A DNA stretch of 64,000 bases, from positions 11,316-75,315 of the forward strand of contig NW_019218627.1 of NCBI RefSeq assembly GCF_002571385.2, in the 5' to 3' direction. A model generated the notes under the pieces. The model was not told the origin of the DNA, did no database searches, and saw only the letters and a list, made by a program, of their open reading frames with translations. Numbering within the stretch: position 1 is the first letter of the stretch; every line of letters starts with the position of its first letter. Positions 260 to 60,302 of this stretch are shown piece after piece. The stretch comes from Stylophora pistillata (lineage: Eukaryota). The translations under genes were made by a program, and so were the position numbers.

Positions 260-2708
260 GCACTAATCATTGTATACATCCCGTAAAAAAACAGGCAAGG
301 AAAGAAAAATAGGTAAATCAATAAACAGCTCTTACTTGTCGATAAATGTCTGAAGATGAAAGTCTGTAAACATGGTTTTAACGTAACCTACCTTTATTTG
401 CTAAGTTACTTTCGAGAAAAAAAAAAATTCACAAAAGAAAGAGTAAAATTCATGATTTCCTCCTCCAGAGACTCGAAAAATATGACGATTATATTGATTT
501 GTTTACTTTAATAGCACAAATATAAGACCCCAGCATGTTCTGTTTTCTTGCCGTATCTTAAATGCATTAATGTAGTTGTAATTTGTCTAGAATTTTGAAT
601 CTCTTGCTCTGTAAATATTTTTATTTTATATTTTATAATATACGTATTAAACACTGACCGCCTCGACTAGCCTTTGCTAACTGCGGGCAGTGTATATTTT
701 TTGTAATATTGTAATATATCATTAATATATATCATTAAACTATCATTAAACTATTAAATCTCGAAAGTTATGCAAACCCTAGAATGTGTCTCGGATTTGC
801 GAAACAAGATCTAACAATCTCATATGAATTCTCCCAACCCTCCCAGCCCTCCTAGTGTTTAGATAAGGCCATTGTAAACACCGTATAACAGTCCTCTATT
901 TCTTAACTAACAAAGACAATTGATACTTTTTGTGTGTTTTAACCGTTTTGTTTTTCTTCACCAGTCGAATTTTGCTTTTTTTAAAATTAGATCATAGACA
1001 AAGAGGTCACTTATGAGAGACCTTTGCTTTCGTTTTCCGAGAAACCTGCGGGTTTTTTCCCGGAATTAGAAACGCTCACGAAGCATATATTTACGAAGCT
1101 GACGAAGCAAATATCAAGAACGCCGACGCAGCAGAACTTAAAACCGCTTAAAAAACTGTTTCCAAGCACAACAGAGCCATTCACTTCAAGGAAGGAAAAG
1201 AAAGAGGTATGAATTTCCTTAGTTCCGAGGTAATGTGATCAACTAATAATGTACTTGAAGAAAAATTGCGCTTTAGTTGGCGAATAGCAACGAGAACATC
1301 GAAGGAATAACCCGCAGCTTATGTCAAATTTGTCAACAACATTTCTTCCGGTAGCGGAGTTTATTAAGACACTAATGCGAAGAAAATTGAGTCTTTTCAG
1401 AAACAAAGGCTCTTCCAGATCTAAACACACTGATGACATCGAATTCATTGAAGTGATTACAAAGAGAAGTAATTTGAATTTATCGATAAAATTTAAAAGA
1501 AGCCGATCGATTTATTCGCGAGATTCCTCTTGGGAAAGCTACGAAATCAAAAGAATTTACCACGCTAAAATTTGTCTCAGGATAATGCAAGTCCCAAATT
1601 TAGCTTGGGCAATGGTTGTACTTATGAAAGTTCGACACCAAATGATTGTAACTTTGGAATAGAGTTGAAACATTGCCTTTTCGCATTTTGGCTTGCATGA
1701 AATAAAACTTACTAGTTTTGCTATGATTTCTTTTCTCGGCCTTGCATTTTTCCTTTCGTTATTGACAGTAGCAGACTCTGGATTTAAAAATTATATTTTT
1801 TCATTGATATTTTGATAATTTCAAACCGCGACACAGGTTACAGTTTTGGTAAGCGTGTTTGACAATCGGGTACAAATGACGATCCGGAAGACTTCGTGGC
1901 GCAATATAACTTATGTTCTCTTATGTTGAATGAGTCTTAAAAAGGACTATTTTAGTAGTTCAACATTTTTATTGTGTAAGCTTGTTATGGACAATAGCAA
2001 AATCCTAATTCGTCTCAATCATTTGGCCCTTTTGAGTGCCTACGAATAATCTTTTGTAAATAAAATTAAAGGGATCAAATTAATGCTTGCTCGAAGGCAT
2101 TAATTTCATCATTTCACTGGGTTTAATTAAATGCGGTAAGATTACCATAAATCAGACACGATTTCGCCAGGCTTAGTTGAACCCTCGACAACTCTGAAAC
2201 TTTGAACCGAGGACTAAACAGTTAGGGAACATTCCTGAATTCCTTATTGTAATGACTAATGAAAATGATAAACATTTGAAACATACAACACTCACTGTTT
2301 GCCATACATGTTATAACTTGAATACAGTAACTCGTCCACTCAATTTATCTCGGCGACGAGTATTATTTGGGAAACGCTCAGGGCAATTTTAACTGTTCCC
2401 AATATGACTGCTAGCTTGTGCTGCCATGGAGCGGACATGACTCGGGTCTCTTCACAAGGATCGGGTTACCTATTCGTCTATAGCTAATGACTCGAATCAT
2501 GGAGCGGTCATGGAATAAGAACAGACCGAGCTCTGTACTCTCTAGTCACCAGCCAAATTTCAGAATCTTTGTTTAAAATACGTTTTACAGCAGAAAATTT
2601 TTATAATTTTCTAGTGATCAATCCACCAGAGTTTAAGCGGAGCATTTTACCTTTTTACCTTTCAGCTTCTCGGATTAATAAGAGATACAAGGAAGCTAAC
2701 TGGCTACG

Positions 2709-5700
2709 ATGGAAACAAAAAATAGCGACTCACTCCATGAGAAAATTAAAAAACAGAAAGAAAAAATTTGCGGAAATAGCCCGAATCTATCTAAAGAAGC
2801 TGCCGATTACCTGGAAGCAGCGCTTGGAAGATTACATTCCCTTACTTTCAAAGATTCAAAACAAAAGGACACATTTTTTGAAAATGTTCAATGTCTTCAA
2901 GGATATCACATAATTGAAATCTTCAATACATGGGTGGCCTCTCATCTTCAAGATTCACTGAAAGATCCTTCCAAATCGACGAGAGAGATAATGGGAATTT
3001 TCGAAATTTGTTCTCAATTTTGTTATTCCTCCGACATGTCCAGTGGAGTATCCTTTGAGGTCTTTATCAGGACTATTAAGTTTTGCTTTCCCTCTGATTC
3101 AAAGAAGTGCCACTTATCAACAAGAATAGTTGTGATGCTACTGGAACTTGTGCAGATTCTCCAAGAAGGAAAACTCATTTTTCCTGTTTCAGATTCACAG
3201 AAGAAAACGTACTGCATTAACAGTGCTACGAATCTCTTCAATGACTTCATTGTAATTTTAGAGGCGAGGGACTATTGCGCGGAAGATATTGTTGATATAA
3301 TCTCCCAAGCATCTAAGTTTGCTCGGGCAGATATCAAACGCAAGTCTTCTGAATTGCAATCGGAACTGATGAAGACGTTATTTCCTGGCTTACAGTAACC
3401 TTTTGATGACTTGATTCCCGCAATTTACTTCAGAAACTGGGGTGATCTCCTTCAGCTAACGAAAGAAGGAGATGTTGCATTCATTCTTCGTCTAGCCAGT
3501 GAAGATCCACTTTATACGCCTCTACCAGGTACCATATCTCCTCTTTGGTATATGGTTAATGTCTTACGGGAACTTAAAAGAAAAGGAGAGCAAGTCGATC
3601 TTGGCTATGAGGAAGAACGGCTTGATGTTTTCTTTAGACACATGTACGATGTTTTCAGAGAAGGCTACGAGATGACAGCTACCTCATTGAAAATCTTCTC
3701 ATGGAAAAAGGTTAACGATACCGACTTAGCAGATGTTTATAAAATTTTCTTCCTCAGAAAATGCGAAGAGCCCACACAATTTCCAACCCACAGTGTACAA
3801 TGCTTCCAATCAGTGGGAGAATTGCTGCATAAATTTCCAGACGGATGTCTAGTCGCAAGAATTCTCCAATTTTGGATTGACACTTTCCCAAATGATCTGG
3901 AAAAAGCAGAGCTTATGAAATTGTTAGATCTCTTCACAGGCCTCTTTATCAAACAATCAGCTGAAAGTGTAAACGGCTTAAAAGAAAAAGCTGACCGGCT
4001 CTTACATTATATTATGAAAATAATCAAGGCGTCCTTAATCGTTTCTTGGCCTAAAGCACCTGAATTTTTGGAGGTATTCAAGCGATCAGCATATTCTTTT
4101 TTGGACTGGATTTCACAACAAGTTGACCTCAGCGAATATGCCAAAGAAAACACGATTGCCCTTTTCGTGCGATGCTTCGATCGTATGGAAAGGTGCGAAC
4201 CATTTTCTTGTCAGCTCATCAAATCCTTGTGCCTATGCAAAGGCTTGTCCCTCGAATACAGGGAAACTTTTCTTGAGGAAATTATAAACTTTTCCACGCA
4301 CCTCGACGAGAACGAAAAAGATCTCATTCTGGCTTTTGTATCTAAAGTATCTACGTCTAGTCAGACCCTTGATAGCAATCAGGAAGTCTTCTCTGAACTC
4401 TCAGAGACATTAAATCGATTAATTTTCAAAAACAAACGTCTGACAAAACAAACTAGATCTAAAACATTTCAGCTGATCATGAATCTAGCCAAAGCTCCAC
4501 TTCTGAGCGTGAAGACTGATAATGTAGTTCGCTTAATAAGGCATTCAAGGAATTTACCAGATGGTCTATCATGCTGCGAAGATGTTTTAAGATTAGCGAC
4601 CTCAGTTGCTGCAATTGTCAAAGAAAGAGCTGAGGAATATTTTGAGATTCTATTCTCGGCAGTTTTTGAGACTTTGAACGGATCGAAACCCCTCTGTGAG
4701 GTCTTTAGCATCCAGCATCAGAATATGACTAAGCTACATATTGATGAGGGTTTCTCAATCGATGTAATGATCATTTGGAATGTTGCCGTGGCTGGACTCT
4801 TGGCACTGGGTATATTTGATAAGATGGTTGACCTGCCTTGTTGCTTGCCAGTTTTTGCAAGAGCAAGGGGATTTAACTCCCCATTTGAAGCTTTGTTGCT
4901 GTATTTTGAGTTAAGGCGGGTGTTTTCTGGGGTCATCTTGTTGTTGAGAGACTTTGCCAAGAGAGGTAGTAGGGAACCATTACCTAAGTCCCCTGTTGGA
5001 AACTTTGTTGATTCTCTGAAAATTATCGTACAGTCTGACATCTCAACACCTGAGGCGAAGCTTAGGTTGATCCAGAAACTCTATCTCCTAGTGCAAGGAA
5101 AGCCAAGGCTCCTGATTGGAAACGTCTTACATTGCGCACTTATGAATGTCATTCCACTTTGTAGCGGAACCTGCCGATCGGACCAAAAAAAGGATTTGGA
5201 CTTTGATCACATTGCAACCATAATTGAACGTCCTGGAATGGTGGAGCTACTTGGAAACATTCCTTCGACACCATCAAAATCAATGTGTTCTATTCTTTGT
5301 CAAACGATTTCCAAAAGGCTATCCACGCAAGATGTAAGCAAGATCTACGATTGTTTTGCTTCCTTCAGACATGCACGAAAAGTATTCCTAGAACATATGT
5401 TAACGCTGTTGGAATCAACCATCAAGGTTTCCAGCTCAGGCACTGTGGTAGTTCGTCTCCTAAAGGAAGCAAAAGAGCTACTCTGTCAGTTTGACCCAAA
5501 ACTGATGCCTCTCGCTATTTCTATCTTTTCTTACCTTGTTGAAAACAACGTAACCCCAAAGGAAAGAGCAGCCTTTTTTGCGGTGGTTTTTCCCGGGTGG
5601 CAAACTACTTGCGACTCAGGCGTGTGTGTGAGGTACGAAATTCCTCACATTCTTTGGAAAACCTACGAAAGTACTAGAAACGGAAAAGGAACATCTGAGG

Positions 5701-8700
5701 TCATGGATAATATCCAAGAACTTATTGAACGCGTCAAAGACCTGGAAACACGAGTAGTGAAAGAGGCTTTGGGAAATCCAGCTACCTTTAATCGTGGCAG
5801 CATAGTTCGCTGCGACTTAGAGAGACTCGCTCTCCACTCCCCTTTATCATGCGAAGATGTTGCCTTATGTTTCCACCTCTCTTGTTGTTACCCAAGTGTC
5901 CACCGACTGACCTGTTTTAACCCGTATGCAGGTTCTGGTTCCCAAATGCAAGATGACCGCTTAATACCTAAACCTACTCAACGCAACGAATCCAAGAGCA
6001 GAGACGATATAAGTAGCCGTAAACAGTTCAGTAATGCCACCCACCATTCATTTGAACAAGCCTCTATGGCTTCAAAAACACTAGCATCTCTCTTGACTCC
6101 AGGTACGATTGCAGAGAAAATGATGGTACAGTTGAGACGTCTCCGAGGTGATGATATAAATCTCCATGATACCACAGTTAAGCTTTGGAATTCTCTTTTT
6201 GCAAACGAAGGCTTAGCCTGTCCAATTGAAGCCTGCAAACCTTCAGACGATTCTTCCGCCTGTGATAATGTGGTAAGGCTTTTCCTCTCCTGCTTGGAAA
6301 AGGCACCATACTTTGAAGTTGTACCTACCTGGTTCGACAATGACATCCGCAAGGGACTAAGTCAGCATCACGTCCTTCAATGTGCCGAAGTCGTATATGA
6401 GTCATGTGGATGGAAAGCCCAAAACCTGGACAAGGAGGGGCATTTTAAGATTCAGGAAGCAATAGCTTTATTATTACAAGAGATCCTTAGAAGTAGCACT
6501 CTATTTCCCAGAATGCCTCCTTTCCTTAATGCAACGTCCTGTTTTTGTGATCTTAGACCCCAACTAGAGTCCCTCCTTTGCATTCTTCAAAATTGCCTGC
6601 CGTTTCAGATAACCTTTGATCTTCTAAAACTCGCCATGGTAGACTTTCAAGCCGCCACTACGATTGCAACGATTGCTTCTTATTGGCCATGCAAAAATGA
6701 AGCAGCAAAGTTGCTGGAGGAAGTTAAAAGGCGCTTCGAAAAAGAGGGAGAGCGTATACACCCACTATGCAAAGACTTTGTTTGGTCAATGTTAGAAGCG
6801 GGTGGCCGGGTTTACAAAGATAGCTCTCAAGTTCTGATAGACAAACTTGAATGGCTGAACGATTTCCATGGCCTTGATGTTCTTAATTACGGCCTTGATC
6901 GGCTTCCAAATTGGCGTAGATTAATGACGGCGGACGGTGTTCCTGCCCACGTGATTGACAACTGGTGTGTGTTTTTTCTCTTCACACCCAGGGAAAACAT
7001 TTCGTTGCGCGATGTTGATGCAGTTCTTGACATCAGTCCCACATCCCTGCAGCTAGTTGCAAATGCCTCTGAAAGTATTAAAAGATGCTTATTTTCAGAA
7101 AATGTCTTTCAAGGAACGCATTCGCAAGAAGAGATATCCTCTAACTCTTTGATCAAGGAATGCTTACGACTGGCCAGATTCCTAAGCGAATTAATCCACA
7201 TATTGAAGGTCCGAGTGCCTGAAAAAACTGCCATCGATGATATTGTTGAGGAAATTGTGGTTCAAGCTTGTAACAGGCTTTGCATGAGTCATATGGAGAA
7301 AATCAAGAAGGAAAAAGATAAAGTCATGAATGCAAAAGACGAAACCGAAGAGACAGAGGACAAAAAACAAAAGGAAGAAAAAAAAACCAAGAAGACAGAG
7401 AACAAATCCAAAAAGGGAGGAAACGTAAGCACAAAGAAAAAAGAGCAAACCAAAACGATAGTAGGCAATTCTAAAATGAAAGAGGACAAATTCAAAGAGA
7501 TAGAAGCCAGAACCGCAGACACAGTAGAAAATGATGGAGAAGAGATGAGAGACAAACGCAAAAAGACAGAGGATGAAAAAGATGAAACAGATTACGAGCC
7601 CAAAATTGCAAAAGATAAAATCAAAAGTAACAATCCCTACAGAATCCTCCACCGGACGCTTAAGGCCCTTTTCAATGAAATGTTTGCCAAACAATCCACA
7701 ATCACCGATAACCAATCCAGTTTACAAAACTGTGGTGAAGGTGCGATGGATTTTGTCTTGAAAGGTTCAACCTTGCCACAGCATCATCTTCCAAGTGAAG
7801 TTTATGAGTCGATGCTGGTATTAATGCGACGCTGGTTGTCGGGTATCGCCAACAAACCATCCCTTGCTTCCAACGCTATGAAGATTGTTCAGTCACTTTT
7901 ATCATTCTCTTGCGAGAAAGATCATTCCCAGATAGAGAAGTTACAAGACGAGATTCGACTTCAGATACTATCATTTCCAAGAAATCAGCTTCTTCTATCC
8001 CAGTTACAAGCAGCAGGCTACAATCAAGGAAACTCCGTGAACTCCCAGGACTTGTGGGCCTCGCCTTCTCTCGAGCTTTCTTGTTTCTTCAGCAAGTGTG
8101 AGTTTCAAAGTGACAAACGTTATGAGACGAAACTAACTGATGTCCTCAGGCTTCATTGGATGCAATGGAAGGACCTACTTTTCAAGCAGAATATTCATTC
8201 TGTAACGATCGATGACCACGAAGTGCCTGTGAAGGACCTCTTTGAGACTCACGCTTCGCGAGTTGAAATGGAGAAGCAGGTGGCAGCTGCAAGGAAAAAA
8301 GTCGGGCAGATTGAGTCCGAGAACGTTAGCAGACATGTGAGCCAGCTAGTTCGTGAAGAGCAGAAGCACCGTGACAGAGTTACTAAATTATACAAGAAAG
8401 TAAGTAAAACGATATACACTAATTTCGTTGACATTGCAGACATTACAGAGCGTGACTTACAAGAAAGTGAGAGCGTACTCATGCATCGTATGCAATACTG
8501 CCTTTACCAGTGGTTAAAAATTCAAACTGTCACATTTACGGAAGAACGATTATGACAACTTGGACAAGCTGGCAGGGTTTGATAGTCCGTAAACTTCCCA
8601 TTAGAACCTGTTAATAGCCCTTCGAAATATTGTGAAGTGATGACGATGATGAAGATTATTATTATAACTCAAATTATCTACTACAACACATAAATCATTT

Positions 8701-11577
8701 GACGATGCTCCGACCTATAGGTAGGGAGGAAAAACGTTCAGGTGACCACCACTAAATTAGTTAAAGCTGACTTTCTAGGTAACCATGTCTTCATTTTTTC
8801 AGAAAGAAGCAAAACCTTGCTCATGCAAAGGCACGTGCTCTAAGGGAGAAACAAGGACCAATCAAGGATGCCCTTGCAAAACACAAGGTTTGGAATGCGG
8901 TCCTGCTTGCACGTGTGGCTCTGCTGACAAGCCTTGTAAAAATAAGGTGGGTTTTGTGTGTTGTGTGCGCTTTATTATATACCTGGCCTGCATTCATTTC
9001 ATCGGCGAGCATTCAGGAATGTTATCCTGGCCAGGAAATCGGAAGGCACTGTGTTCCTTTCAGTACGTCAAATATGATGCTCATGACGAAGATGTCAGGA
9101 AACGCTCAGGAAACACCGTCACTAGTTATATTTTTACTGAATGTTCTTAAACTAAAACCAAGAGCTCATAGTTAACCTTAAAAAGCTAACACCGAGGTTA
9201 GAAAGCACCAGGTTAACAGACTATAAACAAGAGCTATTGGGAATCGATTTGCAGAATTATTGATGCGCTCTTGAGTCGCAAAATGTGCTGATTAACATTT
9301 TATGATTTTGTAATCTAATCGCCATTAGGGTACCACTTCGTTCTCTTAGCATATACTGCTTCAGAAAAAGACATTCTCCACTTTCAATACTTCCACAATT
9401 TCTGTTTCCCTTCTAAGGTGGAAAAAGAGAAGAAGACAAAACTGGTGGCTGTATGGGAAAACCGATTTTTAGAAAACATTAAACTTTGCTCAGAGCTAAT
9501 TCCAGGTAAGCAATTTGACTAGTTTCTCCCAGAGAGCAGGACCCAGAGAAAGCGAAGTAAAACGATCGCCAGTGTAAATTTTAAACATGGATTTACAAGA
9601 TAAAACTGTGAATCAAATTGTCTCTTAATGCAAATCGGCTGTAACTGAACATGGTAATGGCAAAGAAATTAACTTGAAACGAAAAGTCGTTGAAAATCAA
9701 CCCAAAAACGATACAATCGTGAATTTAGCTCGGGACCTTTCCTCAGAAAATAAATCAGAACCCGCAGAACGAGAGCAGAACTTTCTTTTTATCTTTTTTT
9801 TTTAAATCTCCGGGCACTTTAAGTGAGCGGTGTTTCGTGCTTTTTCCAAATGGAGGGGCACCTTGGTAAACTTTTGACTTCCAATGGGCGACGAAGACTT
9901 CATGAAGAAGAAAGCTTAAAGAAAGCGAGGCTCAGTTAGAGAGATAATAAAACTTTTTATTGTTGCAATTTGCAGGCTGTTACGCACCCAACGGTTTCCA
10001 TTCTGAGAAACCTGTGATTTGTGCTCTGTCCGTGGACAACAGGATCTTGACTGTGTTCAAAGAGGAGAAGGGCCGCAGAGAGGAAATCGAGAATGTTGAA
10101 GTGAAACTCTTCGATGCTGGTTTGTACGTATACGGGTTGCATACGAGTGGTCATTATTACGTCACCGACGAATTGTGGGCCGCGTTTTATAAAATGCTTT
10201 TGCAAAAAAGATTGGTGCCTGGAATAGTATTGTCCAATGAAAGCCCGGGGTTTCATTGGATCAAGAAATATGTACAGCCTGGTGAGTGGCAATACACCTC
10301 TTTCCTAAATTGATATTGAGAATTTGCCACCACATCTTTTGCAAAGTTAAACAAACTCCTATTTTGAATAATTAACCTTTCTGTGATTCCCTTCCTCAGT
10401 GAAAGTACATCCTTGCTTCTGGAAGTGGCACCTAAATTGCGGTATCGTTCCTCCAGAAGAAGACTATTTAGACTACCGCCCAATTGAAGCAGCCTTGTGT
10501 CCTTGGTTGCATGGACTCAGTGAATTCCTAACCTTAACAAGGATAAATGTCGCAAGGTTTCGTTTTAAATATCTCATGGTGAGTTCATTTAATGTCAGAG
10601 AAGTTGGCAGGAATATCATGACCTAAAATTACATCTACTGAATCAGCACCCATTTATATCGCCTGTACTAAACATTACTATACTTACGTTATAATTGAGT
10701 TATAGATTACGTCTAGCTTCCGAGTATACCATATAATAGACAAATTTACACTGTTATTTCAAAATGCTAGAAATAACAGGAAAGCAACTGTTTACATGTG
10801 GCATTTCGTTGTATGTTAGTTCGAATCAGCTCAGTTTCAAATGACGTTGATTCTTTGTGAAACAAAATGTCCCGAGTCATTCATTCATTCAGAATCTTTT
10901 GAGATTTCAACATTTTGACTTCGTACTTTGCAGTCATCAATGTGACTCCACTCATGTATTGAAGATATGAGGTGCTGTTGCACTCTTGCCTCATCTTGAA
11001 GTCACAGACATGAACACAAAAATCGCCCTTTTCATCTCTGAGAAGAGAGCAATAACTAAGTTGTCGTCATTCAATATTTCTTAATAAAGAAAACTGCAGA
11101 ATCAAATGACTAACTTTAAACTTTCTAACAAACTTGTCTAAATCAACACTAGGACGCTAAAGTCGTCGAGGGGAAAGAACAGCAGGCGAGGGAAGTGGCA
11201 GGAAAATTCAACGCCATTCCCCAACTGAAACAGAAATTGCACTCGCTGCACAACGACGCCATCCTAATAGGAAAACTCGCATCGAAACTGGAATTTGCTG
11301 TTAAGAAAACAATCACCCAAATTGTGATGGGAGAATGGCCCACTACAGAAACTGTCAAGAAACACATTGATATGAGAAGGTTCGCGTTTATCAAATGTGA
11401 ACAGTGCAAATTGAAAATTCAAAACTGTAAATGTATAATTTACCAAGAGGAATATGCAACTATTGTGCTAAGGGTGTGTGAAAGCGTCCAGGAAACACTC
11501 TTAGTTTTACTATTCTATGTCTTTCTTGTCAATCTATTTGCTTTGGATTAATATAATTCCTGCTTAGGAGGCTTTAA
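2709..11577 (+). CDS. Uncharacterised very large protein (~2,200 codons): helical solenoid-like N-terminal region, K/E-rich linker, CXC exon, unknown C-terminal domain; one in-frame TAA at 3396-3398
   Basis: ORFs 2709-3398 and 3411-8555 are in the same frame, separated only by TAA-CCT-TTT-GAT-GAC. Phase-compatible GT-AG exons: 2709-8399 (donor GTAAGT), 8803-8946, 9418-9505, 9976-10281, 10400-10578; then less certain 11153-11379 and 11568-11577. No family recognised. Confidence 0.7.
8803..8946 (+). CDS. Phase 0-0 exon encoding a CXC/tesmin-like Cys-rich zinc-binding module (part of the large gene)
   Basis: ttttttcAG|AAAGAAGCA...AATAAG|GTgggt; KEAKPCSCKGTCSKGETRTNQGCPCKTQGLECGPACTCGSADKPCKNK has 9 Cys in CxC-x3-C...CxC-x6-C-x3-CxC...C spacing. 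Confidence 0.65.
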
Positions 11578-14080
11578 GAAACCACTGACTGACTGAGGAC
11601 ATCTGTGGAAAGTTTCTCTGAAGAAAGGCCTCAAATTCAATACTCTCCATTTTTTTTGTTCTTTTTTGTACACGGCCTCCACTGACTGAAGGCAGAGTGA
11701 CGCCTAGAAGAAGGAACTCTTTTCTTAGACTCTTCAAATATTTACGAGAATTTAAACTTTAAAAAAAATTGACTATTAATCGCTCATGCACCAGTTGAGT
11801 AGTGGGTTCTGAGGCCGTATTGCACATGGCGGGCTTGTGTGAAGTGTAAACTCTTCTAAAGGTAAAGAAAGGGTCAGAGGTAGGATAGTGGGCAAGAGTT
11901 TTACTTTTGTCGTTTAGCTGTTTCTTTTGTTTTCTTTATTTTTCAGAGTGCTCTTTTAAAGAGTGTCGTGAACTAAAAACCAAAGTAATTTGCAACGGCC
12001 AATCTAAACGAATGAAAATATGAGTAAATGAAAAATGAGCCAACGAGAACTCAAAGTAAAAACATGCAAACTGTCTGCAGCACGAGAAGACATGGATGAC
12101 CAAGTCACTATTGGTCTTCGTTTCAAAACCGACTTTCGGGATCAATTTCTGAGCGAAGTAAAGATCAACCAAAGCGATCTCGAATTACTTTAACCTCTCA
12201 ACCGAGAGTGCTGTTGCCACAGAACAGTTTGTTCACCAAGCAATACTACCATAAAACTCCATACATTTAGAAGCTAAACTTTAATATCTACCTACTGATA
12301 ACATTCAATCAAAAATCAGATCATCTCATAAATACCTGACTTCAAGTGTTTTTGCTATTAATCATTAGCTCACTATGCCAAAATGCTAACTGTTACACAT
12401 TATGTGCTGCAGTTAGCTGAAACCTTACAAGTGTGCCAAGTAAGGTCTGCAGCCAGAGCTAGGTCATTACACAGTGCATGGATTGAACCCAGGGGTAAAG
12501 ATAGATGATATGATCTGATCGTCCAGGTTAGAGTGTTCCTGGACCTAACTAAGTAGTGTTGTTGGAAGCATTGACTGATGAACACAAGTCACCATAGGAG
12601 TCAAGCTCGTAAAACACAGTCTTTAGGATAACAATTTTGGATAACTCTCACCTGGACAATCAGACTATATAATTACATAGGTAAAAATTGGTAACTTTAG
12701 TTGCTACCCATTCAAAGGTTTGAGAAGTGAAAAAATAAGTTATCAATGCAGCTTAAGCACAGAAATATATTACATAAAATAGAGAGAGACCCAGTACATT
12801 CTGGTAACACTACTCTCATTACTACAGAACTTTTTCTACCAAAACTTATGTGAAATAAATGGCCATTACCAAATGCAAACTGTGATAAAATTAGTCAGAT
12901 CTGTTCAGTTTAAATAAACTGCATATTCCTGCAAATTGATATCAGAGATGAACTAAGTAAAATTTATTACTTCCAGCAGATTGTAATTTTCAAGGTTGTG
13001 CAACTGTAACAGACAGATTTACAGAGAGAGGGAGACTGACAAACACAGAGACAGATGACAGCCCAGTAGATAGACAGACACCTTTTAGTGCAAATAGTAA
13101 TCACCAGAAATGCCAAAAGGGGCCCTTGAATTTAAGTGCCAGTGAGAATGTCCTTTCATGGAATGTCCCTAAGAATTTCATTGCTTAACAGTGTCATCAC
13201 TTACTAATTTTTTCACTAGTAAGAGGAAAGAAAAACATCACTTGCAGAACATTCTCTGATTCAAATTCTCATAGTTACATATGTAAGGAATTTATGACAG
13301 ACACTAACAAGAATCGATTTTTAGAGGTTTAAATGAGAGAAAAAATTCAACCAACAATTTGGCCTAACCACCCTGAAAAATATTAATGTGTAATTCCTGT
13401 AGTGTTTCAGCTTCCGTTGCATTTGGAAAATTGAAAAAGAAAAGTTCATATTTTATTTCTATTTAGGGAACAGACTAAATTGGGCAGTAACTAATAATTT
13501 CTTAGGAGTGAGACCTAAGCATTTACGACAAACTAATTACAAATCTGAAAAAATTGGCTGTTTATGCCCTAAATGTCTTTATGCCATGTTAGGCCAAATG
13601 AAAAAGTAGGGAAAGACATTCTCATTGTGAGCCATAATTAATATCTGTATGCTAAAATCAAGTAAATAACAGATAAGAAAAAAAACTCCTACCAACACAT
13701 TAAAGGCACTATCCAATCCATTGCCAAAGTAAATTGTGATATTTTCCACAAAACAGTGTAAATAAAACATACACAATGTACATCTTAGTTAAGTTAAAAT
13801 AAGCAAATCCATAACATCAATCCAGCAACAATATTTATGTCCTCAAAAAATTGTCTTTGTGCTCACAAATGGGAACAGTACAATATTTTCCATTTCTTTT
13901 TTGACAAATTCTGTTGTTAAAAAAAGTTTTATACATGCACACCTTGATTTTCACCAACAAAGTCTAAGTGAGTTTACTAAGCAAACTTTAAGTTGTACCA
14001 CTTTCTTCAGCTCAGAATTATTGCTTGAAAAACATTTACAAGTTTTTTTTAATGGCCAGTCTTAAAAAGCTGTTGCTTGT

Positions 14081-23000: not shown

Positions 23001-23817
23001 AACCGGCTCTTCTTACGCGGTGTTAACTATGTCAGTACTTATGCATAACGATTTTGTTTTACCCTTGACTTGTACAAAGGCGTTTCCTCAAGAGGAACTT
23101 TGTTTAGAATGAAACAAGAAATTACAGCGACTTCAATCTAGCCTAAGACTGTGCTAAAAAATCACTTCAGTGGAGTCGCCTTGCTACCTGTTGCTCACCA
23201 GTTGTGCAAATATCACTGTTGGACAATATGCTCTCTAGTTCATCTTGATGTAGCTCCAAAAACTGTGATGTTTCCGCGACTTTGACAAAATTTTCACACA
23301 GAAATCTGTGGCACCGCTGATGAAGCTTTTCTTGTCCATGAGTAAGCGAAATTTCCTGCACTTTCAAACAATTGTCAGGCGTTAAAAAACTCGCAAGAAC
23401 GTAGGAACATTCCTCGATCAAGCTTTGTAGCTTGAAGAAGATTGCAGCCTTGAAAATGTCGATAGCGTTGCCGATGTTGATAAAAATTCGTCCTCCATAC
23501 ATGTAACCAAGTAATGCCTCCATAGTGGAACGCTCGATCTCTTGAGGAAGATCCACGTGCTTAATGAATCGACCGCTTTCGTTGTCTATGAACAGGGATC
23601 GGAAATACGGACTCGCAACGCCGAGGATATTACGATGGCACGAAAATTTCAAACTTCCAATTCGCAGCGTCACATCGCAGAGAATCGCCTCTCTGCGTAA
23701 GAATTGAAAGTACTCGATGATAGAATCTTGAAAATTTCTATCCACAAATAAATACGTTTGGTCCTGTTTGATTCTATTAATGTCTGTCTGGATATCTCCA
23801 ACGTGTTGGGAAGGCAT
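20081..23817 (-). CDS. Kelch-like BTB-BACK-Kelch protein (probable CUL3 adaptor), 601 aa
   Basis: Exons 23817-23188, 22379-22006, 21160-20952, 20849-20487, 20310-20081 (1806 nt, in frame); BTB (LCDVTL..FSCHRNILGVASPYFRSLF), BACK (EQQVFDSLVRW..LLQHVRL), Kelch repeats (IYVIGG..ERYDP...W). Confidence 0.92.
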
Positions 23818-24718
23818 ACTGAACTCTTGAGTCTGATTCCTTTATTTTATATTTTACTAGTGCCTGGTTAGATACATTAAATGCTTACAAGTATTATTTG
23901 CATACCAAGAAAGCTGCGTGAGTTTATTTATGCTCATTTAAGAGTCGTATTTGTGGTGTAAACTAACAGGTACCACTGGTATATTTATGTATGCAAATAA
24001 TGACGGCGGATTTTGTCCGTGCATTTTTGAAATGTAATCGGGCTAACACTCACCTCTTAAACTGAAAACAGACAAAAAAAAATTCAACAGACTTTGGAGG
24101 GAGGGGAGGAACTGAAGAGCGACGGCGAAACAATGACCGGGAAAATATGATTATCACTTTCCATGTTTTGTTGCCAGCGCATGTGTCTGGGTAATGGGCC
24201 GGTCAATATTAATCCCCTGGGCAAGTCGGAGGATATTGGTTGTATCACGATAAAATTTACCTGATTCCCCCATAAGGTTTTGTAATATTGTCATGATCCC
24301 CCTCATAGGCAGTTATAATCAGCAGTCAATTTTTCATGTTCCCCTTTCATATCCTGTTGGATATATATGACTGATCCCCTGTTATTCCCCTGAAAACCAT
24401 GTGATCCCTACCAAAAAAATTCCTCTTCTTAATGAGTTCATTATTTTCCCTGGAAAATTGGAGAGGTGTCTCACACATTTTGACGCAGACTAGATGGTTC
24501 AATGGGTAGTGATCACTTCGATTTTCTCTAACAGCTGGACACCATGATGACTACTTGCGTGATTGTTTACATGCGTGATTGTCTACATGCGTGGTTACAA
24601 AGGCGATAATTAGTCTGGTCTCCTGTCGTCGTGATCCGAACGGACGATCGCGTGAGTTTGGACACTCACCAAGCTCTCGTTTCTACAGAACGAACATAAA
24701 ATCCACTAATTTGTGACA

Positions 24719-25432
24719 ATGTCTGACGAACCGGAAACAACCACCTCTGATTTTTGGAAGGGACTTTGGAAGAACGGTGACATTGGCTGGCATCGTAACG
24801 AAGTGAATGCATTTCTGATCAAGTATTTTGACGAACTCACCGGTGGACGATCGAATCTTCGCTTCTTCGTGCCCCTTAGTGGAAAATCAGTAGATATGTT
24901 GTGGTTGGCCGACAAAGGGCATACAGTGGTTGGAGTAGAGCTCGCCAAGCAAGCAAACGAGGATTTCTTCGCAGAAAATAACCTGACTTTCACGGTGGAA
25001 TCAGTTGAAATGTCTGCAGTCAGTGAGCCTGTGGAAGTATACAAGTGTACGGAGAAGAAGATCACGATCTTTTGCTGTGACCTCTTCGCTATGACAGAAA
25101 ATGATGTTGGTGGGAGATTCGACGCCATCTGGGATCGTGGATCCTTGTCTGCCATCGCTCCTTCGTTTGGTGACAGGGGTAAACGGTATACAACAAAAAT
25201 GCATTCACTTCTGGCTAGTGGTGGAAATTACCTGCTAGAAAGCTGTTATTATGAAGTTGACCGCGGGATGAACCCTCCAGCCAGCATTCCAGACGAGCAG
25301 ATAAATGAAATGTATGAAGAACACTTCACTATCAAAAAGCTGGAAGTGAACAAAATTCAGCCAAACCTCGACATAAAATTGTCCTTTGCTCTCGACATGA
25401 AACATTACCTGTTCAAGCCAAAAGTAAACTAA
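24719..25432 (+). CDS. TPMT: Thiopurine S-methyltransferase-like SAM-dependent methyltransferase, single exon, 237 aa
   Basis: FWKGLWKNGDIGWH, RFFVPLSGKSVDMLWLADKGHTVVGVELA, CCDLF, FDAIWDRGSLSAI and NPP are TPMT-family motifs; first ATG at 24719. Confidence 0.9.
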   Translation: MSDEPETTTSDFWKGLWKNGDIGWHRNEVNAFLIKYFDELTGGRSNLRFFVPLSGKSVDMLWLADKGHTVVGVELAKQANEDFFAENNLTFTVESVEMSAVSEPVEVYKCTEKKITIFCCDLFAMTENDVGGRFDAIWDRGSLSAIAPSFGDRGKRYTTKMHSLLASGGNYLLESCYYEVDRGMNPPASIPDEQINEMYEEHFTIKKLEVNKIQPNLDIKLSFALDMKHYLFKPKVN

Positions 25433-40136: not shown

Positions 40137-43100
40137 ATGGCTGCCACTTTACCCGATGACGATGATCTAGATGAAGTTATGCTTATGAACCATCCTGTAA
40201 CAAAATCCTCCGCTCGAAGTGGCAAGGTAAGCTAATACTTTCGAAGACGGTGACGAATTTTGATCACCATTAATTGAATTGTTTTGATCCGGATCCAGCA
40301 ATTTTTCATACCTGCATCGTACCGCAACAGCTGTTTTTTGTGATTTTGAAACAATAAAAAATTGAATTTCATCCGATTTTTATCATTTCTTGAATTAAAT
40401 TTTTTATTTAACCTCTTTTTTTTAAGGAAAGGAAAAATGAACCCACTGCAACATCAAGAGTTAGAGAAGACATTTCCCAAGCGCCGAAGAGCTTTTTGTT
40501 GCTTAACGAAATGGAAATTCTCCAGGTAACCTTGGACCTTGAATGTAAAATAGTGGTCACTAATTTATCTACACCTTTGCGAATATTTGATTTATCCAAA
40601 ATCTGGATTTTCCCGGTTCGTTCCTAAATAGTGAGGCTAACTTAAATAAACGTTGCAATATGTGTTACAGTAGTACTTTGAACCCGGTTATCTGGCGTTA
40701 CCATGTATAATACACAGGTTGTTGGTGAAGTTTAGCTCCCTAACCACTAGTTATGGTTAGCTTGTAACTTCTACTCACAAAAATTGGTTAAACTAATTAA
40801 TCAAAGTAGCTTTGTAGCTGATAAGCTTGTCTGCGCTGCATGATATCATAAGCTGTGGATATTTGTATTTATGTTGACGTAACTAACGTGATCAGTTTGG
40901 AGCTGAGAATTTGACAATTAGCGCCATGCATGAGGATAAACAAAGCTGCTTGCTATGGAGTGATTGGTAAAATTATATTTCAATGAAATATTTAGGATAA
41001 TAGCAAAATGGGATTTTATCTCATGTAAGACTGTATTTATCTAAGCAAAGAGTCAGAATACATGAACTAAAAGACTAGTTTGTTTCTTTGAAGTTTCTGC
41101 CTGAATAGAGCTTTGCAAGAAGGCATTGCAATTTTTTTCTTTTGTCATGACAAAAACCCTAGATTGATCTGTTATGATTATAAAGCTGGCATTTCAAGTG
41201 TTAGCCCTCCCTCAGTTAACCCATTCCATCTGGATATGGGCTTTAACACCATAAACACACGCTTTAGAATCTCTTTGTGATGGTCAATTTATATTTATCA
41301 ACTCAGTTGATTTAAATCAATTTACAGTATCTTATAATACCCCCCAACGATGCAGCACCACAGTTTTTTGGGAAACTTACCCCTTTTATTAGTCTCTTAC
41401 AATTATAAAGGCTGATAGTTTCAAAAGAAACTGTTTGGGGCTGCGTCGGTGGGAGTAACGAAATAATTTCGATATATCAACAAAGTTGAAATGGTAAATT
41501 GGCCACCGTAATGATTACAAAAGCTGACGTTTCGAGCGTTAGCCCTTCNNNNNNNNNNNNNNNNNNNNNNNNNNNNNNNNNNNNNNNNNNNNNNNNNNNN
41601 NNNNNNNNNNNNNNNNNNNNNNNNNNNNNNNNNNNNNNNNNNNNNNNNNNNNNNNNNNNNNNNNNNNNNNNNNNNNNNNNNNNNNNNNNNNNNNNNNNNN
41701 NNNNNNNNNNNNNNNNNNNNNNNNNNNNNNNNNNNNNNNNNNNNNNNNNNNNNNNNNNNNNNNNNNNNNNNNNNNNNNNNNNNNNNNNNNNNNNNNNNNN
41801 NNNNNNNNNNNNNNNNNNNNNNNNNNNNNNNNNNNNNNNNNNNNNNNNNNNNNNNNNNNNNNNNNNNNNNNNNNNNNNNNNNNNNNNNNNNNNNNNNNNN
41901 NNNNNNNNNNNNNNNNNNNNNNNNNNNNNNNNNNNNNNNNNNNNNNNNNNNNNNNNNNNNNNNNNNNNNNNNNNNNNNNNNNNNNNNNNNNNNNNNNNNN
42001 NNNNNNNNNNNNNNNNNNNNNNNNNNNNNNNNNNNNNNNNNNNNNNNNNNNNNNNNNNNNNNNNNNNNNNNNNNNNNNNNNNNNNNNNNNNNNNNNNNNN
42101 NNNNNNNNNNNNNNNNNNNNNNNNNNNNNNNNNNNNNNNNNNNNNNNNNNNNNNNNNNNNNNNNNNNNNNNNNNNNNNNNNNNNNNNNNNNNNNNNNNNN
42201 NNNNNNNNNNNNNNNNNNNNNNNNNNNNNNNNNNNNNNNNNNNNNNNNNNNNNNNNNNNNNNNNNNNNNNNNNNNNNNNNNNNNNNNNNNNNNNNNNNNN
42301 NNNNNNNNNNNNNNNNNNNNNNNNNNNNNNNNNNNNNNNNNNNNNNNNNNNNNNNNNNNNNNNNNNNNNNNNNNNNNNNNNNNNNNNNNNNNNNNNNNNN
42401 NNNNNNNNNNNNNNNNNNNNNNNNNNNNNNNNNNNNNNNNNNNNNNNNNNNNNNNNNNNNNNNNNNNNNNNNNNNNNNNNNNNNNNTTTAAGGAAAGTGT
42501 AATGATGAGTTTAGGATAAAAGAGCTTATTTTAATACTTGACAACTTGGAATTTAATACCTGAGCAGTCATAGTCATGTACATGTTCAAAAGCGGCCAGA
42601 TGTCACTAACAACCCTGAATAGGCATATCATTGTTAGATCAGTACTATTAGCATGCTTATTCTGATTAGTTCATTTTCATATGCATAATATGTTTACTGC
42701 TTGTATATACTCTGTAGCCTGCTAATTTATTATTAATATTTATTATTTTTATAATATTAATTATAGTATTTGTTACACAAAGGTTATTTAAAAGTAAGTT
42801 ATCAATTTAAGAATAAACACTAGCGAGAAAAACACACAACGTTTCGATGACTCCATGTCATCATTCTCAAGTGAGAAGAGAATAAAAATGAATAGTTAAT
42901 TTATACCGTACGAAGGTGGCAAACGTAAAAAGTTTAAAATATTTAAAATATTTAAATAAATAATTGTGTGTTATCAATCACTGTCTTATATTGTATTAGT
43001 TTTGATAATTATGGTAAATGCCTTTGGTATCAGATTTTTAGTGTTTATACAGTCATGTACATAAATTATTTTAATTAATTATTTTGTTAATAATTACCAT

Positions 43101-46100
43101 GGTCACCACTCTCTCCTTCAGGTGCATACAGTAGAGGACTTCATTGCTAAGTTGTCCTGTCATGGCGACACCAGCATGAAAGTTGTATCCATATTTGGTA
43201 ACACAGGTGATGGAAAATCACACACCCTTAACCATGTCTTCTTCTGTGGCAAAGAAGTATTTGGGACTTCACCATCTCAGCTCTCCTGCACAGTTGGTGT
43301 TTGGGCTGCCTATGATGAGGGTAGTCGGGTGGTTGTCTTGGATACCGAAGGGCTATTGGGTATGTCAGGCAATCAGAACCAACGTACAAGGCTATTACTG
43401 AAGGTCCTAGCAATATCTGACATTATCATCTATAGGACAAGAGCTGAAAGGCTCCACACAGACATGTTTACTTTCTTGGGGGATGCATCAGATGCCTATC
43501 TAAAACATTTCACCAAGGAGCTGAAAGATGCTACAGAACGATGCCACATGGATGTGCCCCTATGCAATCTTGGTCCAGCTGTGATCATCTTTCATGAGAC
43601 ACAGCATACCCATTTACTAGGAGTGTCAGAGAATGAGGCAAATCCATCAGGTTTGGATAATTTTGCAGCTTTGAAATCAGTTGATAAATACTGTAATTTC
43701 TCTAATAAGTGCCTACAGGTGCCAGGGCTTGACACTGACAGACCAGCCATTACTAGCCACAGACTAGCAGAAATTCAGTTTTCAATTGGCAAGTGGTTTT
43801 CAATTTTCACCAGCCAGTTTGGCCAGTAAACAAACTGAAATTGTTGTAACATCTAAGTTGTCATTAACCACTTGGCTAGTAAGTTAAAAAGTTAGTTTCG
43901 AGCCCTGGGTGCTTCAAATTTTTGCTAAATTAAATTAAGTGGAGGGGCACTTATGGAAGAAGGATGGAGGTTAATAGAGGGTGGTGCTTATTTTACTCTC
44001 CTGTACAGATTCCACTATAGCTGAAGGTTAAAAAGTTATAGATAAAAGGGGCACAGTAGAAATAGGTTTTCCATCATGTATCCCTATTATTTAAGGTAGT
44101 GAGAGTTTGAGAGAGGGGCCCCGGGGACAGTAATGTTTATTATAGAGCACTTAATTATTCAAGGAAATACAGTATGTCAATTGATTTTGAATTTCTTTTT
44201 GAATCTGAAGTAGTTCTAAAGATTGAATTATACTCCTGATTTTATATTCTGCCACTCAAAAATTCTTTTTTTTTTTAATTTTCCTTCTGTAACAGAAAAT
44301 CTGAAGAGTCCTGATGAGATTTTAAAGGAGAGATTTGCAAATGTAGGAAGAGTTCCTCATGCATTTAGTTCTATCAAGTACCTAGGAACAAGGACAGAGA
44401 CTCCACCAACAAACTTCAAGGGATTGAAGCAAGCTGTAAAGGGATGTTTAGGGGACAGCTCTGTGCGCTCGTCACGATCACCTACTGTCATTTATAAAGC
44501 TTTGATGGTAATTTCTCTAGATTAGTTAACAGTCTTTGACAGCTAATCACACCCAAATCACACATTAAGGTCACAAGAATTAAGAAAATGATCTTAAAGT
44601 AAAGGAGCTCCTGATTATTAACAAATTCTCCTTGTTAGCACCTTTGGAAACTTGTAGTGAATAGTATGAAGAATATGCATGCTGATGTCAGGATGTAAAG
44701 AATTCAACGATACAGGTCAATTGCACTCGTTAGTCTGGGAAAAACTAAGACCACATTAACTGTGGTCGCTTACATGAAAATGACCAACAAACCAAATTGA
44801 ATCCAGTTGAAATTCTTTGTCATATTCTTTGCCAGCATGTGCTTGGGTCCAGTTAGCAGTTACTAGACAGAACTGAATTTATTTGGAATTGTTGATCATT
44901 AGATTCTCATCATAGGTCAGGGCTTTAAATTAATTTACACTAACTTTTCAATTTACTAGCCAAGTGGCTAGTGACAACTTAGATACTACGATAATTTCAG
45001 TTTGTTTACTAGCCAAACTCACTGGTGGAAATAAAAAACCGCCAGACAAAACTGAATTTCTTCTAGTCTGTGGCTAGTTAGCTACCATTAGTGTCAATGG
45101 AGCTCTGCAGGTTTAAAGTCTGATCTGTTTAAGTAACCAGGTGATAATGCTGGAATTGCTGAAGGCCTAATGCAGGTGAAATACCTATGGCCTTATAGCT
45201 GAGGGAAGTGTTTCTTGTACAGGTATACAATTAGTAGGCTGAATGTTAAAGTTAACTGAGAGAAGTGCAATGAAAAAAGGTTCTCAGAAATTATTATTTA
45301 AACTAACTAGACCTAAAGGAGGTAAGGGCCAGTAAGTAAAGGAGTGTTAAACGCAGTGAGTAATGAGTGTTATATTCAATAACATGTACCTGTTTGTGTC
45401 CTTCCTCTGAAATCTGTAAAGGGACTAATTATTAGATGGGGAGGGGGGAAGGGTTGGTCAATAACTGTAATTATGATCATTGTGTTACTAATTTTTTTAC
45501 ATCCAAGTTTCTCTCCTTTCCTTTTCATCAGCTCCTAAATGAGAAGTTCAGTGGGGACATTGAAAGAACAATACCAAACACTTTCCCTGACGAATATTTC
45601 ACTTGCCAGGCAGCGTGCCTCTCATGCCAGTAAGCACAAGGTTTATGGTTACCACCTTATACAACAAAATTTGTTGTTACTAATGACTGTAATTTTTGTC
45701 AATGGTGTAGGCTAACTGTACATGTCCAGCAAAGAGTAGTGGTGCTGTCTGTGACAGTACCTGACACGATCATGCATTGCAAAGGTCGACATCATCAGAG
45801 TCTACTGATTCAGAAGATTAATAATGTCAGTTGAATGTTGTAACCCCTAACCCCCTAATAGAGTGGCAAGCGTCTGATATCTCCTAATGATACCACAGCT
45901 GAGTTGAACAATCATGAAGGTCATGGGAATAAATGAAAAGATTGCCAACTTGATTAAGAAGCTCTTGATCCTCAAATAAATTGTTCTTGTTAGTACATAA
46001 TTTGACTGGAAATGTACAGAGAACAGTATATGGAATATGTAGTACATACTTAGTATACACCAAATGCAAATAGGGCATCCAATTTGAGTTGCCATTGTTC

Positions 46101-55459: not shown

Positions 55460-56067
55460 TGATTATCGTCTTTGACTCAGGATAACTTTGAAAGTCTTCT
55501 CATCCATGTTGAAAGGTTGTTTCAAATTCTCAAAGTCTTCTCCCTAAGGATGGGCCGATATTCGCTACCAGCGATGCCGAGGTCGGATCAAAAAATAACG
55601 ATACTACAGAGGAGAATCGATTCTTTCGATACTGCAAGTGACCTGCGCTTTTTAAATCTCCCTCGACTAACCGCTGATAAATAGCCGAAAAGACTTCGGG
55701 CTCGAGATCGTGCACTGATGTGTGTGGGGTTGCAGCAGTGTACCGATCGCGATCAAGGGTGGTGGTTTCTTCCTTTCCACAGAGCAACATTTCATTGTGA
55801 AATAGACCCAATTTTATTAACTGTAAATGTAAAGTCACTCAACATGCTCTATACAACGGCAACAAAATCACAACTCACAACAATCCGGGCATTAAAAGGA
55901 GATATCTAGAGTGCCTACCAAAGAAAAACATTGTGTGAGAAAAGCACTGAGAAAGGTTAAATAGTTCTAAAGTATGGTATTAAACTTATTACATACAAGT
56001 CTGCCACACTGCCTCAGCTGACGTATTGCCATATCGTCTTGAATTTTTGCCGCTCGTCGGACAACAG

Positions 56068-59423: not shown

Positions 59424-60302
59424 CAAGGAAACTCATGGCGAACAATTTGATACACCATGGCCTTGGCGCATGCGAATCGTGTTACTCTGTGGACTTACAT
59501 TATGTTTCAGCGCCTATGAAATTACAAAGAAAACAGTGAAAACCAGTCTTACCGTAGTCAAACCCATGCTTTCATAAGTTATGGCTAAAACTTTTTTCAG
59601 GTCCCCAAATCTAATTTAAAAGAAGAACATGTCCCCTTGCCTTACAGCAATATTGTTTACAAAGAGTTGACGAATCGACGTTTCCTAACGCTTTTGAGAT
59701 TTTCTCCTGTTCCTGAGAAAATCTGCCATAATTCTCCTCTTATTTCCGTTAAATTTGTCCGAACGTGGCACCGTAATACTTTTCGGATAAGTTCTCTGTT
59801 GCTCATGTAAGATGTCCCCAAAGACATTTCGACTATCGTAATCTCTTATTTGAAGGCTAAAGTCGACTTCTGTACTGAAAACGGCCCATAAAAACGGGAA
59901 TTGACGGTTCCTAACGCCCCTAAAAAAGGGTTAAAATCGGAAAGANNNNNNNNNNNNNNNNNNNNNTCTTGAATGATTTTCCACGTGGATATCAATGAAT
60001 GACAGGAGTCAATGGATTACCACTCAACAACCCATTCGAGTAACGTAAGGGGTTGGAGCCGTACGTTTTCCTCCGAAGACTTTTTACTAAGTCTTGAACC
60101 TTAATTAATTTTTGTCGCAATATTTTTAATTTTTGCGGATCCTGAGCGATTCGAATAGTTAAAAGGATTTTTTCTGGGTATATTTCAAATTTAAGCACTT
60201 TTGCAACCTATTTTAAAATCAATTTCCCAGGGAAAGAGAGAGTACCCCGCGAGGGAGGTTGTACCGTTTACACTCGTCCCCAGGATCATCTCCGCTTTCA
60301 AG

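Follow-up and report, generated by a model that had tools for sequence, protein, structure and literature searches.

A long, expressed coral gene of Stylophora pistillata ends in a conserved domain with a predicted GNAT fold, apparently of an undescribed family

The window analysed here, a stretch of 64,000 nucleotides from the coral Stylophora pistillata (RefSeq assembly GCF_002571385.2, contig NW_019218627.1, positions 11,316 to 75,315 of the forward strand), holds near its start an intact, expressed gene for one long protein. Six coding exons (2709-8399, 8803-8946, 9418-9505, 9976-10281, 10400-10578 and 11153-11551) join in phase to encode 2,268 amino acids (aa), and the five GT..AG introns between them are spliced out in RNA contigs from all four poly(A) RNA runs, which represent four studies. 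The original prediction, made from the sequence alone, had put together a single long gene from fragmented open reading frames (ORFs), and the transcripts bear it out. It had also placed four small exons and probably two more behind a giant first one; the in-phase splicing was correct, but the downstream coding exons number five rather than six. There is no seventh exon: exon 6 ends at the stop codon at 11549-11551, and the RNA contigs are unspliced beyond 11577. At the 5' end, an in-frame stop precedes the ATG at 2709 within the window, and coral relatives begin at the same residue as the product of this ATG. Loose contig ends of 20-92 nt before 2664 in three of the four RNA runs match window positions 1176-1205, and the splice signals for an intron in the 5' untranslated region (UTR) are found as a GT after 1206 and an AG at 2664-2665. 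The features of the gene are as follows.

1115-1206, + strand: 5' UTR exon (start approximate), joined to about 2666; from loose contig ends and splice sites.
2709-8399, + strand: coding exon 1, aa 1-1897, 5,691 nt; about 1,450 aa of Leu/Cys-rich, apparently coral-only region, then the start of the shared module; from RNA and homologues.
3396-3398, + strand: codon 230, an in-frame TAA that most likely reflects an assembly error; absent from eight runs, and coral relatives read through.
7290-7634, + strand: K/E-rich low-complexity linker, aa 1528-1642, hypervariable; from composition and alignment.
8010-8027, + strand: AAGYNQ motif (LxxxGYxxxLW-like), present as well in sponge, amoebozoan and Omnitrophota relatives, ahead of the domain.
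8262-8399, + strand: charged helical segment, aa 1852-1897, likely a coiled coil judging by its sequence; aligns with protist and sponge relatives.
8803-8946, + strand: coding exon 2, symmetric phase 0-0, with a CXC-type Cys cluster; from RNA contigs and paralogue comparison.
9418-9505, + strand: coding exon 3, encoding the first strand and first helix of the GNAT-like domain; from RNA contigs and the model of a relative.
9976-10281, + strand: coding exon 4, encoding the core of the GNAT-like domain, including the GCYAPNGFHSEKP motif (Cys1976, His1983, Glu1985); from RNA contigs, alignment and model.
10400-10578, + strand: coding exon 5, encoding the last part of the GNAT-like domain, with its DYxD motif and final strand; from RNA contigs, alignment and model.
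11153-11551, + strand: coding exon 6, ending with the stop codon 11549-11551; helical, with a hydrophobic tail at the C-terminus that may be a membrane anchor; from RNA contigs, model and hydropathy.

Downstream of the stop, deep RNA contigs at 11669-12600 overlap the 3' UTR and continue past 12600; they may represent a long UTR or a neighbouring transcript.

The gene is not the orphan that it had been taken for: the NCBI model LOC111345249 of S. pistillata (P0001, 1,987 aa) covers aa 282-2268 with 100% identity, and relatives occur in several groups. This model is truncated and begins 3' of the stop at codon 230. The giant first exon of the original prediction stands in position and length (2709-8399, 5,691 nt), but it is not open in the assembly, where this TAA had been overlooked. 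At position 3397, T is found in all four RNA runs and in three of another four runs (DNA or unlabelled), the remaining one having C; the A that makes the stop is carried by none of the eight, with the limit that the runs were compared as contigs, which drop rare variants, so that a rare stop allele could escape. Likewise, at 2063, 2379, 2822 and 4023 the assembly letter is found in none of the further runs covering the site, and two other letters occur across the runs. Because the same third-letter pattern recurs at 2063, 2379, 2822, 3397 and 4023, wrong assembly letters at polymorphic sites are the most likely explanation, rather than a null allele. That the codon-230 stop makes the gene a pseudogene or null allele is highly improbable: the TAA is present in the assembly and one paralogue likewise has one stop in exon 1, but the absence of the stop from all eight runs, the spliced RNA contigs from four studies and the purifying selection described below speak against it. 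The paralogue's own stop (C565:106670-106672) may be an assembly error of the same kind.

The genome contains five matches to exon 4 and four to the end of exon 1. On contig C565, three full-length copies lie in tandem with a partial one, and the window gene is likely one of four full-length copies in a single tandem array, its last member. The window's contig (C839) likely continues this array, because protein P0020 from a 3.8-kb contig bridges the two (its first exons match the final copy of C565 at 96-99%, and the last two match C839:850-2222 at 98%), and because the contig ends overlap (C839:1-152 with C565:156,986-157,137 at 98%, in a stretch that is partly repeat). Beyond 157 kb the C565 scaffold may be mis-joined or represent an alternative haplotype. 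At C565:159,960-160,325 there is a stray copy of the family's last exon. A pair of long open frames with a single stop between them and without a Pfam match (L015:6669-9095, + strand) is located between the window gene and the next family copy.

Between the paralogues, identity by tblastn is 27-29% across the first 1,550 aa as opposed to 81-87% in exon 4. Since exon 4 compared with four paralogues shows a high synonymous divergence (dS 0.66-2.08) while the non-synonymous divergence is low (dN 0.06-0.10), gene conversion is ruled out, and the similarity is the result of strong purifying selection; for the domain encoded by exons 3-5, dN/dS is 0.05-0.09. Exon 1 has a dN of about 0.7 with saturated dS. 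Its 34 listed polymorphic coding sites comprise 27 non-synonymous ones (including the presumed false stop) and 7 synonymous ones, and were not used as evidence, as assembly errors are mixed in. All nine listed differences between RNA contigs and assembly at 7398-7785, in or just after the K/E-rich linker, are non-synonymous.

The globular C-terminal domain, already recognised in the original prediction, is conserved, looks like the working end of the protein and is predicted to have a GNAT (Gcn5-related acyltransferase) fold. An AlphaFold2 model of the relative P0028, based on an alignment of 59 sequences, reaches a mean pLDDT of 91.6, and this relative is identical to the window's domain in 136 of 189 residues (72%). 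Comparison of the P0028 model with 48,161 chains using VIA-align gave a best Z of 8.7 with a root-mean-square deviation (rmsd) of 3.1 over 139 residues. The best 50 rows (Z 7.3-8.7) are all acetyl- or acyltransferases by title or proteins with a GNAT fold; a model lacking a clear match typically has Z 4-5 at rank 50. Among the listed matches taken here as GNAT-fold proteins although their titles lack the word are 7byy, 2qml, 4cry, 1ro5 and 1z4e. A Foldseek search with the same model retrieved human GCN5 with a probability of 1.00 (E 6e-3), the first four rows being poor alignments (rmsd >15) to an engineered fusion, and the structural matches to a poor model of the window's own domain were again mostly GNATs, antizyme entries included. 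The elements of the P0028 model follow the order b1-a1-a2-b2-b3-b4-a3-b5-a4-b6, which is that of GNATs. PMC8556138 gives six to seven strands and four helices as the core topology of GNATs, and this is found in the P0028 model, itself a prediction with a moderate Z. A profile of the domain compared with PDB sequences had its best match at E 0.058, located in the helical tail, and the ESM Atlas gave no usable match for the coral domain.

The motif GCYxPxGxHxEKP sits between helices 1 and 2 in the P0028 model and the alignment, and in GNATs the loop between these helices lines the acceptor side. Among the alignment rows the Cys is conserved in 47/49, the His in 45/49, the Glu in 46/50 and an Asn in 53/59, while a Tyr at the end of strand 4 is found in 41/59 rows and the Asp of YxD in 39/46. 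These polar residues, kept across bacteria and eukaryotes, would suit an active site. In contrast, motif A (R/Q-x-x-G-x-G/A), described in PMC8556138 and PMC9703596 as the coenzyme A (CoA) loop of GNATs between strand 4 and helix 3, is present in only one of 59 domain rows, as compared to 9 of 14 in the control, the second GNAT domains of protist and sponge relatives. GNAT profiles from Pfam and NCBIfam match none of nine coral and anemone domain rows, nor P0028; five matches were obtained in 40 relatives scanned, all downstream of the domain, and another scan gave matches in 9 of 59 proteins, their place relative to the domain not being shown. No second GNAT was found in coral proteins with Pfam-type profile scans, and a profile comparison between the domain and the relatives' own second GNAT gave no link. 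Pfam scans of the window's pieces yielded weak matches only, below the cut-off, and the domain matches no Pfam, NCBIfam or PHROG family. For four LOC identifiers of the family no mention was found in the literature, nor is the family described in the literature searched, which did not cover most subscription journals and supplements, including those of both Omnitrophota preprints cited below. As originally suggested, this is apparently an undescribed family, with a GNAT fold and within the known superfamily.

Searching with a profile built from nine sequences of corals and anemones gave 142 of 1.84 billion representatives at E <=0.001. Thirty of the 142 were looked up, and ten came with an organism: the sponges Sycon and Oopsacas, the chytrid Rhizophlyctis, a Candidatus Omnitrophota bacterium and the amoebozoans Cavostelium, Pyxidicula, Pelomyxa, Mastigella, Mastigamoeba and Clydonella; no bilaterian was among these ten. 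The anemones Actinia and Actinostola were added by homologue search. A scan for the motif in bacterial and archaeal genomes gave 22 loci, namely 13 bacterial members (labelled Omnitrophota, WOR-1/Saganbacteria and a few others), two near-copies of coral exon 4 and seven chance matches; the 13 members were picked by the motif and are therefore no test of its conservation. A restriction to invertebrates, as first assumed, does not hold for the C-terminal module, which is also present in amoebozoans, a chytrid and Omnitrophota/WOR-1 bacteria. The two near-copies (L024:1161-1475 and L032:5724-6038) come from one bacterial metagenome-assembled genome and are likely animal contamination. A search with the whole domain found it in 16 of 301 Omnitrophota genomes, a count that includes the centre genome, and in 13 of these the open frame is longer than 1,000 aa; in six loci from this search Cys and Glu are present in all and His is missing in one. 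The bacterial domain occurs in long open frames together with HEAT repeats, methyltransferase, kinase or peptidase.

In phylogenetic trees, bacteria, hexacorals and other eukaryotes are separated with strong support, and the origin of the domain is not resolved. In the approximately unbiased (AU) test the domain remains compatible with a single animal clade (p 0.225), so separate coral and sponge origins are not claimed here, nor is a direction of transfer. A homologue search restricted to proteins of 3,465-5,000 aa found nothing, no viral contig matched the motif pattern, and tblastn returned two weak phage records (E 0.2) and no plasmid. Residues 600-930 of P0156, a bacterial domain, matched three phage or bacterial clusters of about 200-350 aa in the ESM Atlas with feature scores of 0.95-0.96, which may be stand-alone relatives. 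The C-terminus of P0156 shares a GGID-like tail with L030, L031 and L035, a possible Omnitrophota export signal.

Relatives of the first approximately 1,450 aa were found only among 18 proteins from one homologue search and among the paralogues and coral proteins of another (Stylophora, Pocillopora, Oculina and Montipora are named), and a coral profile gave no match to this region in the distant relatives. Only this N-terminal part appears to be coral-restricted. Its described composition was correct (Leu 8-18% and Cys 0-6% over aa 1-1500), as was the lack of a P-loop, a motif scan finding no GxxxxGK[ST] in the 2,268-aa protein. With regard to the putative solenoid of exon 1 (HEAT/ARM-type helical hairpins in repeats), a Pfam scan gave only FANCI_S3 (E 0.0036, below the cut-off), and P0001 has no match among PDB sequences. 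The K/E-rich linker was also confirmed, with K and E making up 41 of 100 residues in aa 1501-1600; it is missing from most relatives, and 12-aa repeats take its place in P0007 and P0008. The CXC module exists in exon 2, but it is a private exon and not a family feature: it is absent from the paralogues and from the Oculina and P0016 relatives, and the Pocillopora protein has only its tail, which suggests that exon 2 is likely a local, late insertion. Eighteen other weak, dispersed matches to exon 2 occur in the genome; of three inspected, one adjoins a Mutator-like ORF (itself below the cut-off), and Pfam, as a test for a Tesmin/TSO1-type or transposon CXC, gave no match up to E 1. The unit that is conserved is a module of about 540 aligned columns (hhalign probability 99.95) with the order helices, LxxxGYxxxLW-like motif, charged helix, globular domain and trailing helices. 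A hydrophobic C-terminal tail is present in the Stylophora and Pocillopora copies, not in six other cnidarian proteins scanned, and in 7 of 15 protist and sponge relatives (hydropathy >=1.6).

As a tentative proposal, the C-terminal domain could well be a cysteine-dependent acyl or aminoacyl transferase, with the N-terminus choosing the target. Cys1976, activated by His1983 and Glu1985, would accept an acyl group as a thioester and then transfer it to a target protein, at an amine or hydroxyl; we infer this catalytic role of the three residues from conservation alone. The donor would be bound without the usual pyrophosphate loop and, because this loop is missing, may be one other than CoA, such as charged tRNA. 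Selection of the target would fall to the long, fast-diverging N-terminal part. With more reserve, we consider it possible that the copies of the array take part in host-microbe conflict, with a different partner for each N-terminus, because of the patchy spread of the family, its tandem expansion, the N-terminal divergence and the bacterial context. The original prediction had seen a conflict-type layout, and the local tandem expansion and fast-diverging N-terminus fit it, but the lineage restriction that went with it fails. The most far-reaching version, a Cys-His-Glu centre replacing the CoA loop in an effector cassette of giant proteins of host-dependent Omnitrophota, exchanged early with Amorphea and now forming a stony-coral tandem array of sensor-effector proteins that acylate targets in host-microbe conflict, is speculative and, taken as a whole, doubtful.

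A number of observations weigh against a catalytic GNAT-fold domain with a conflict role. The best Z of 8.7 barely exceeds the 7-8 that VIA-align calls common, no Foldseek match reached E 0.001 or better for the domain models searched, and the good model is that of a relative, the window's own domain having given a poor one (pLDDT 59). The His is replaced in 4 of 49 rows and in the bacterial locus L047. The missing CoA loop is also compatible with a dead enzyme, and the protist and sponge relatives have a second, canonical GNAT, absent in corals, that could do the chemistry. Finally, dN/dS of exon 1 is about 0.3 (dS saturated), with no positive selection, and nothing was found that speaks for an immune role.

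Among the rival explanations, a metal site formed by Cys, His and Glu (zinc or iron), making the domain a metal-dependent hydrolase or giving it a structural metal, is unlikely: the H-x-E at the start of a helix resembles the zinc motif of deaminases, and a second Cys lies seven residues upstream in 31/44 rows, but this Cys is missing in all four bacterial rows, no deaminase occurs among the 50 listed structural matches and the strand order of the model is GNAT-like. Of the deaminase hallmarks HxE and PCxxC, the alignment shows the first only. Some other ideas from motif resemblance (a KDZ-transposase CxC, a PD-(D/E)xK nuclease, a USP His box and a deaminase) were dropped, as none is among the listed fold matches, although absence from this list is not exclusion. 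We give a similarly low probability to a non-catalytic GNAT-fold module binding an acylated peptide or metabolite, in a protein that would act as scaffold or sensor. The missing CoA loop and the separate canonical GNAT of protist and sponge relatives would agree with it, and non-catalytic GNAT folds exist (PanZ, antizyme), 4cry and antizyme entries being among the matches; on the other hand, the conservation of Cys, His, Glu, Asn, Tyr and Asp extends from bacteria to corals, and the coral domain evolves at dN/dS <0.1 without a second GNAT. Still less probable is an ordinary acetyl-CoA N-acetyltransferase binding CoA by a diverged loop. The close structural matches all use CoA or are related to enzymes that do, and a Gly follows strand 4 in 38/58 rows, but motif A is absent, no GNAT profile matches the coral domain and the profile comparison with the relatives' second GNAT was negative.

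The proposed transferase resembles the GNAT superfamily (GCN5, RimI/RimJ/RimL, Naa50/Naa80, Rv0802c) in predicted topology (Z 7.3-8.7, rmsd 3.1-4.6 over 115-160 residues), but differs by an identity of 3-12%, the lack of the R/Q-x-x-G-x-G/A loop and of any profile match, and the extra Cys-His-Glu loop between helices 1 and 2 within a 2,268-aa protein. Mom, FemX and MprF combine a GNAT fold with charged tRNA, a donor other than acyl-CoA, according to PMC13219725. The coral domain has no sequence link to these three, none of which is named among the 50 listed structural matches, and its own use of tRNA is a guess. By eye, the PcfJ-like domain (PF14284), whose fold is presumably GNAT-like (a term found in neither PMC5512222 nor PMC7824862), is similar in having a Cys after the first helix and then three strands, and the ESM Atlas gave a PcfJ feature score of 0.85 for the bacterial domain, a lead only. 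PF14284 itself does not match the family, and the profile-profile score was 12.9 versus a shuffled maximum of 15.0; the PcfJ profile had only eight rows, two of them below the family cut-off, and a remote link could escape it. For the giant proteins of Omnitrophota, two preprints report HEAT repeats and Pfam GNATs and propose, among other readings, cell-surface effector roles (10.1101/2023.11.21.568195, 10.64898/2026.06.07.730766). Such giants carry the same domain, whereas the available text of the preprints names canonical GNAT only (PF00583 in one); PF00583 does not detect the domain in 14 bacterial proteins scanned. The coral N-terminus has no shown relation to these giants. With NLR-type and other invertebrate sensor-effector proteins the gene shares a tandem cluster, a divergent long region and a conserved terminal domain, but Pfam and motif scans found no NTPase, death-fold, TIR or LRR domain in the coral protein. 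An NLR/STAND receptor was rejected, there being no Walker A motif and no Pfam match.

Further along the window, a 690-aa open frame at 53393-55462 (- strand) with Mab-21 nucleotidyltransferase and Mab-21_C domains is a candidate cGAS-like receptor; it lies 42 kb from the gene described here and is no real evidence for a conflict role. Other neighbours are a BTB-BACK gene (23170-23841, - strand), a TPMT gene (24710-25429, + strand), a GTPase-like exon with a weak AIG1 match that we take to resemble ZFYVE1 (43065-43826, + strand) and a long open frame without a Pfam match (60195-61635, + strand).

The Stylophora assembly likely contains wrong letters at polymorphic sites, which can lead to false stops in gene models. 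From an uncharacterised and wrongly truncated coral gene model, the analysis arrives at an enzyme hypothesis that names three residues and can be tested. The domain family, missed by the profile libraries searched, connects corals, sponges and amoebae to the giant proteins of Omnitrophota, which are poorly understood. If its chemistry is cysteine-dependent or CoA-independent, this would be a new mechanism for one of the largest enzyme superfamilies.

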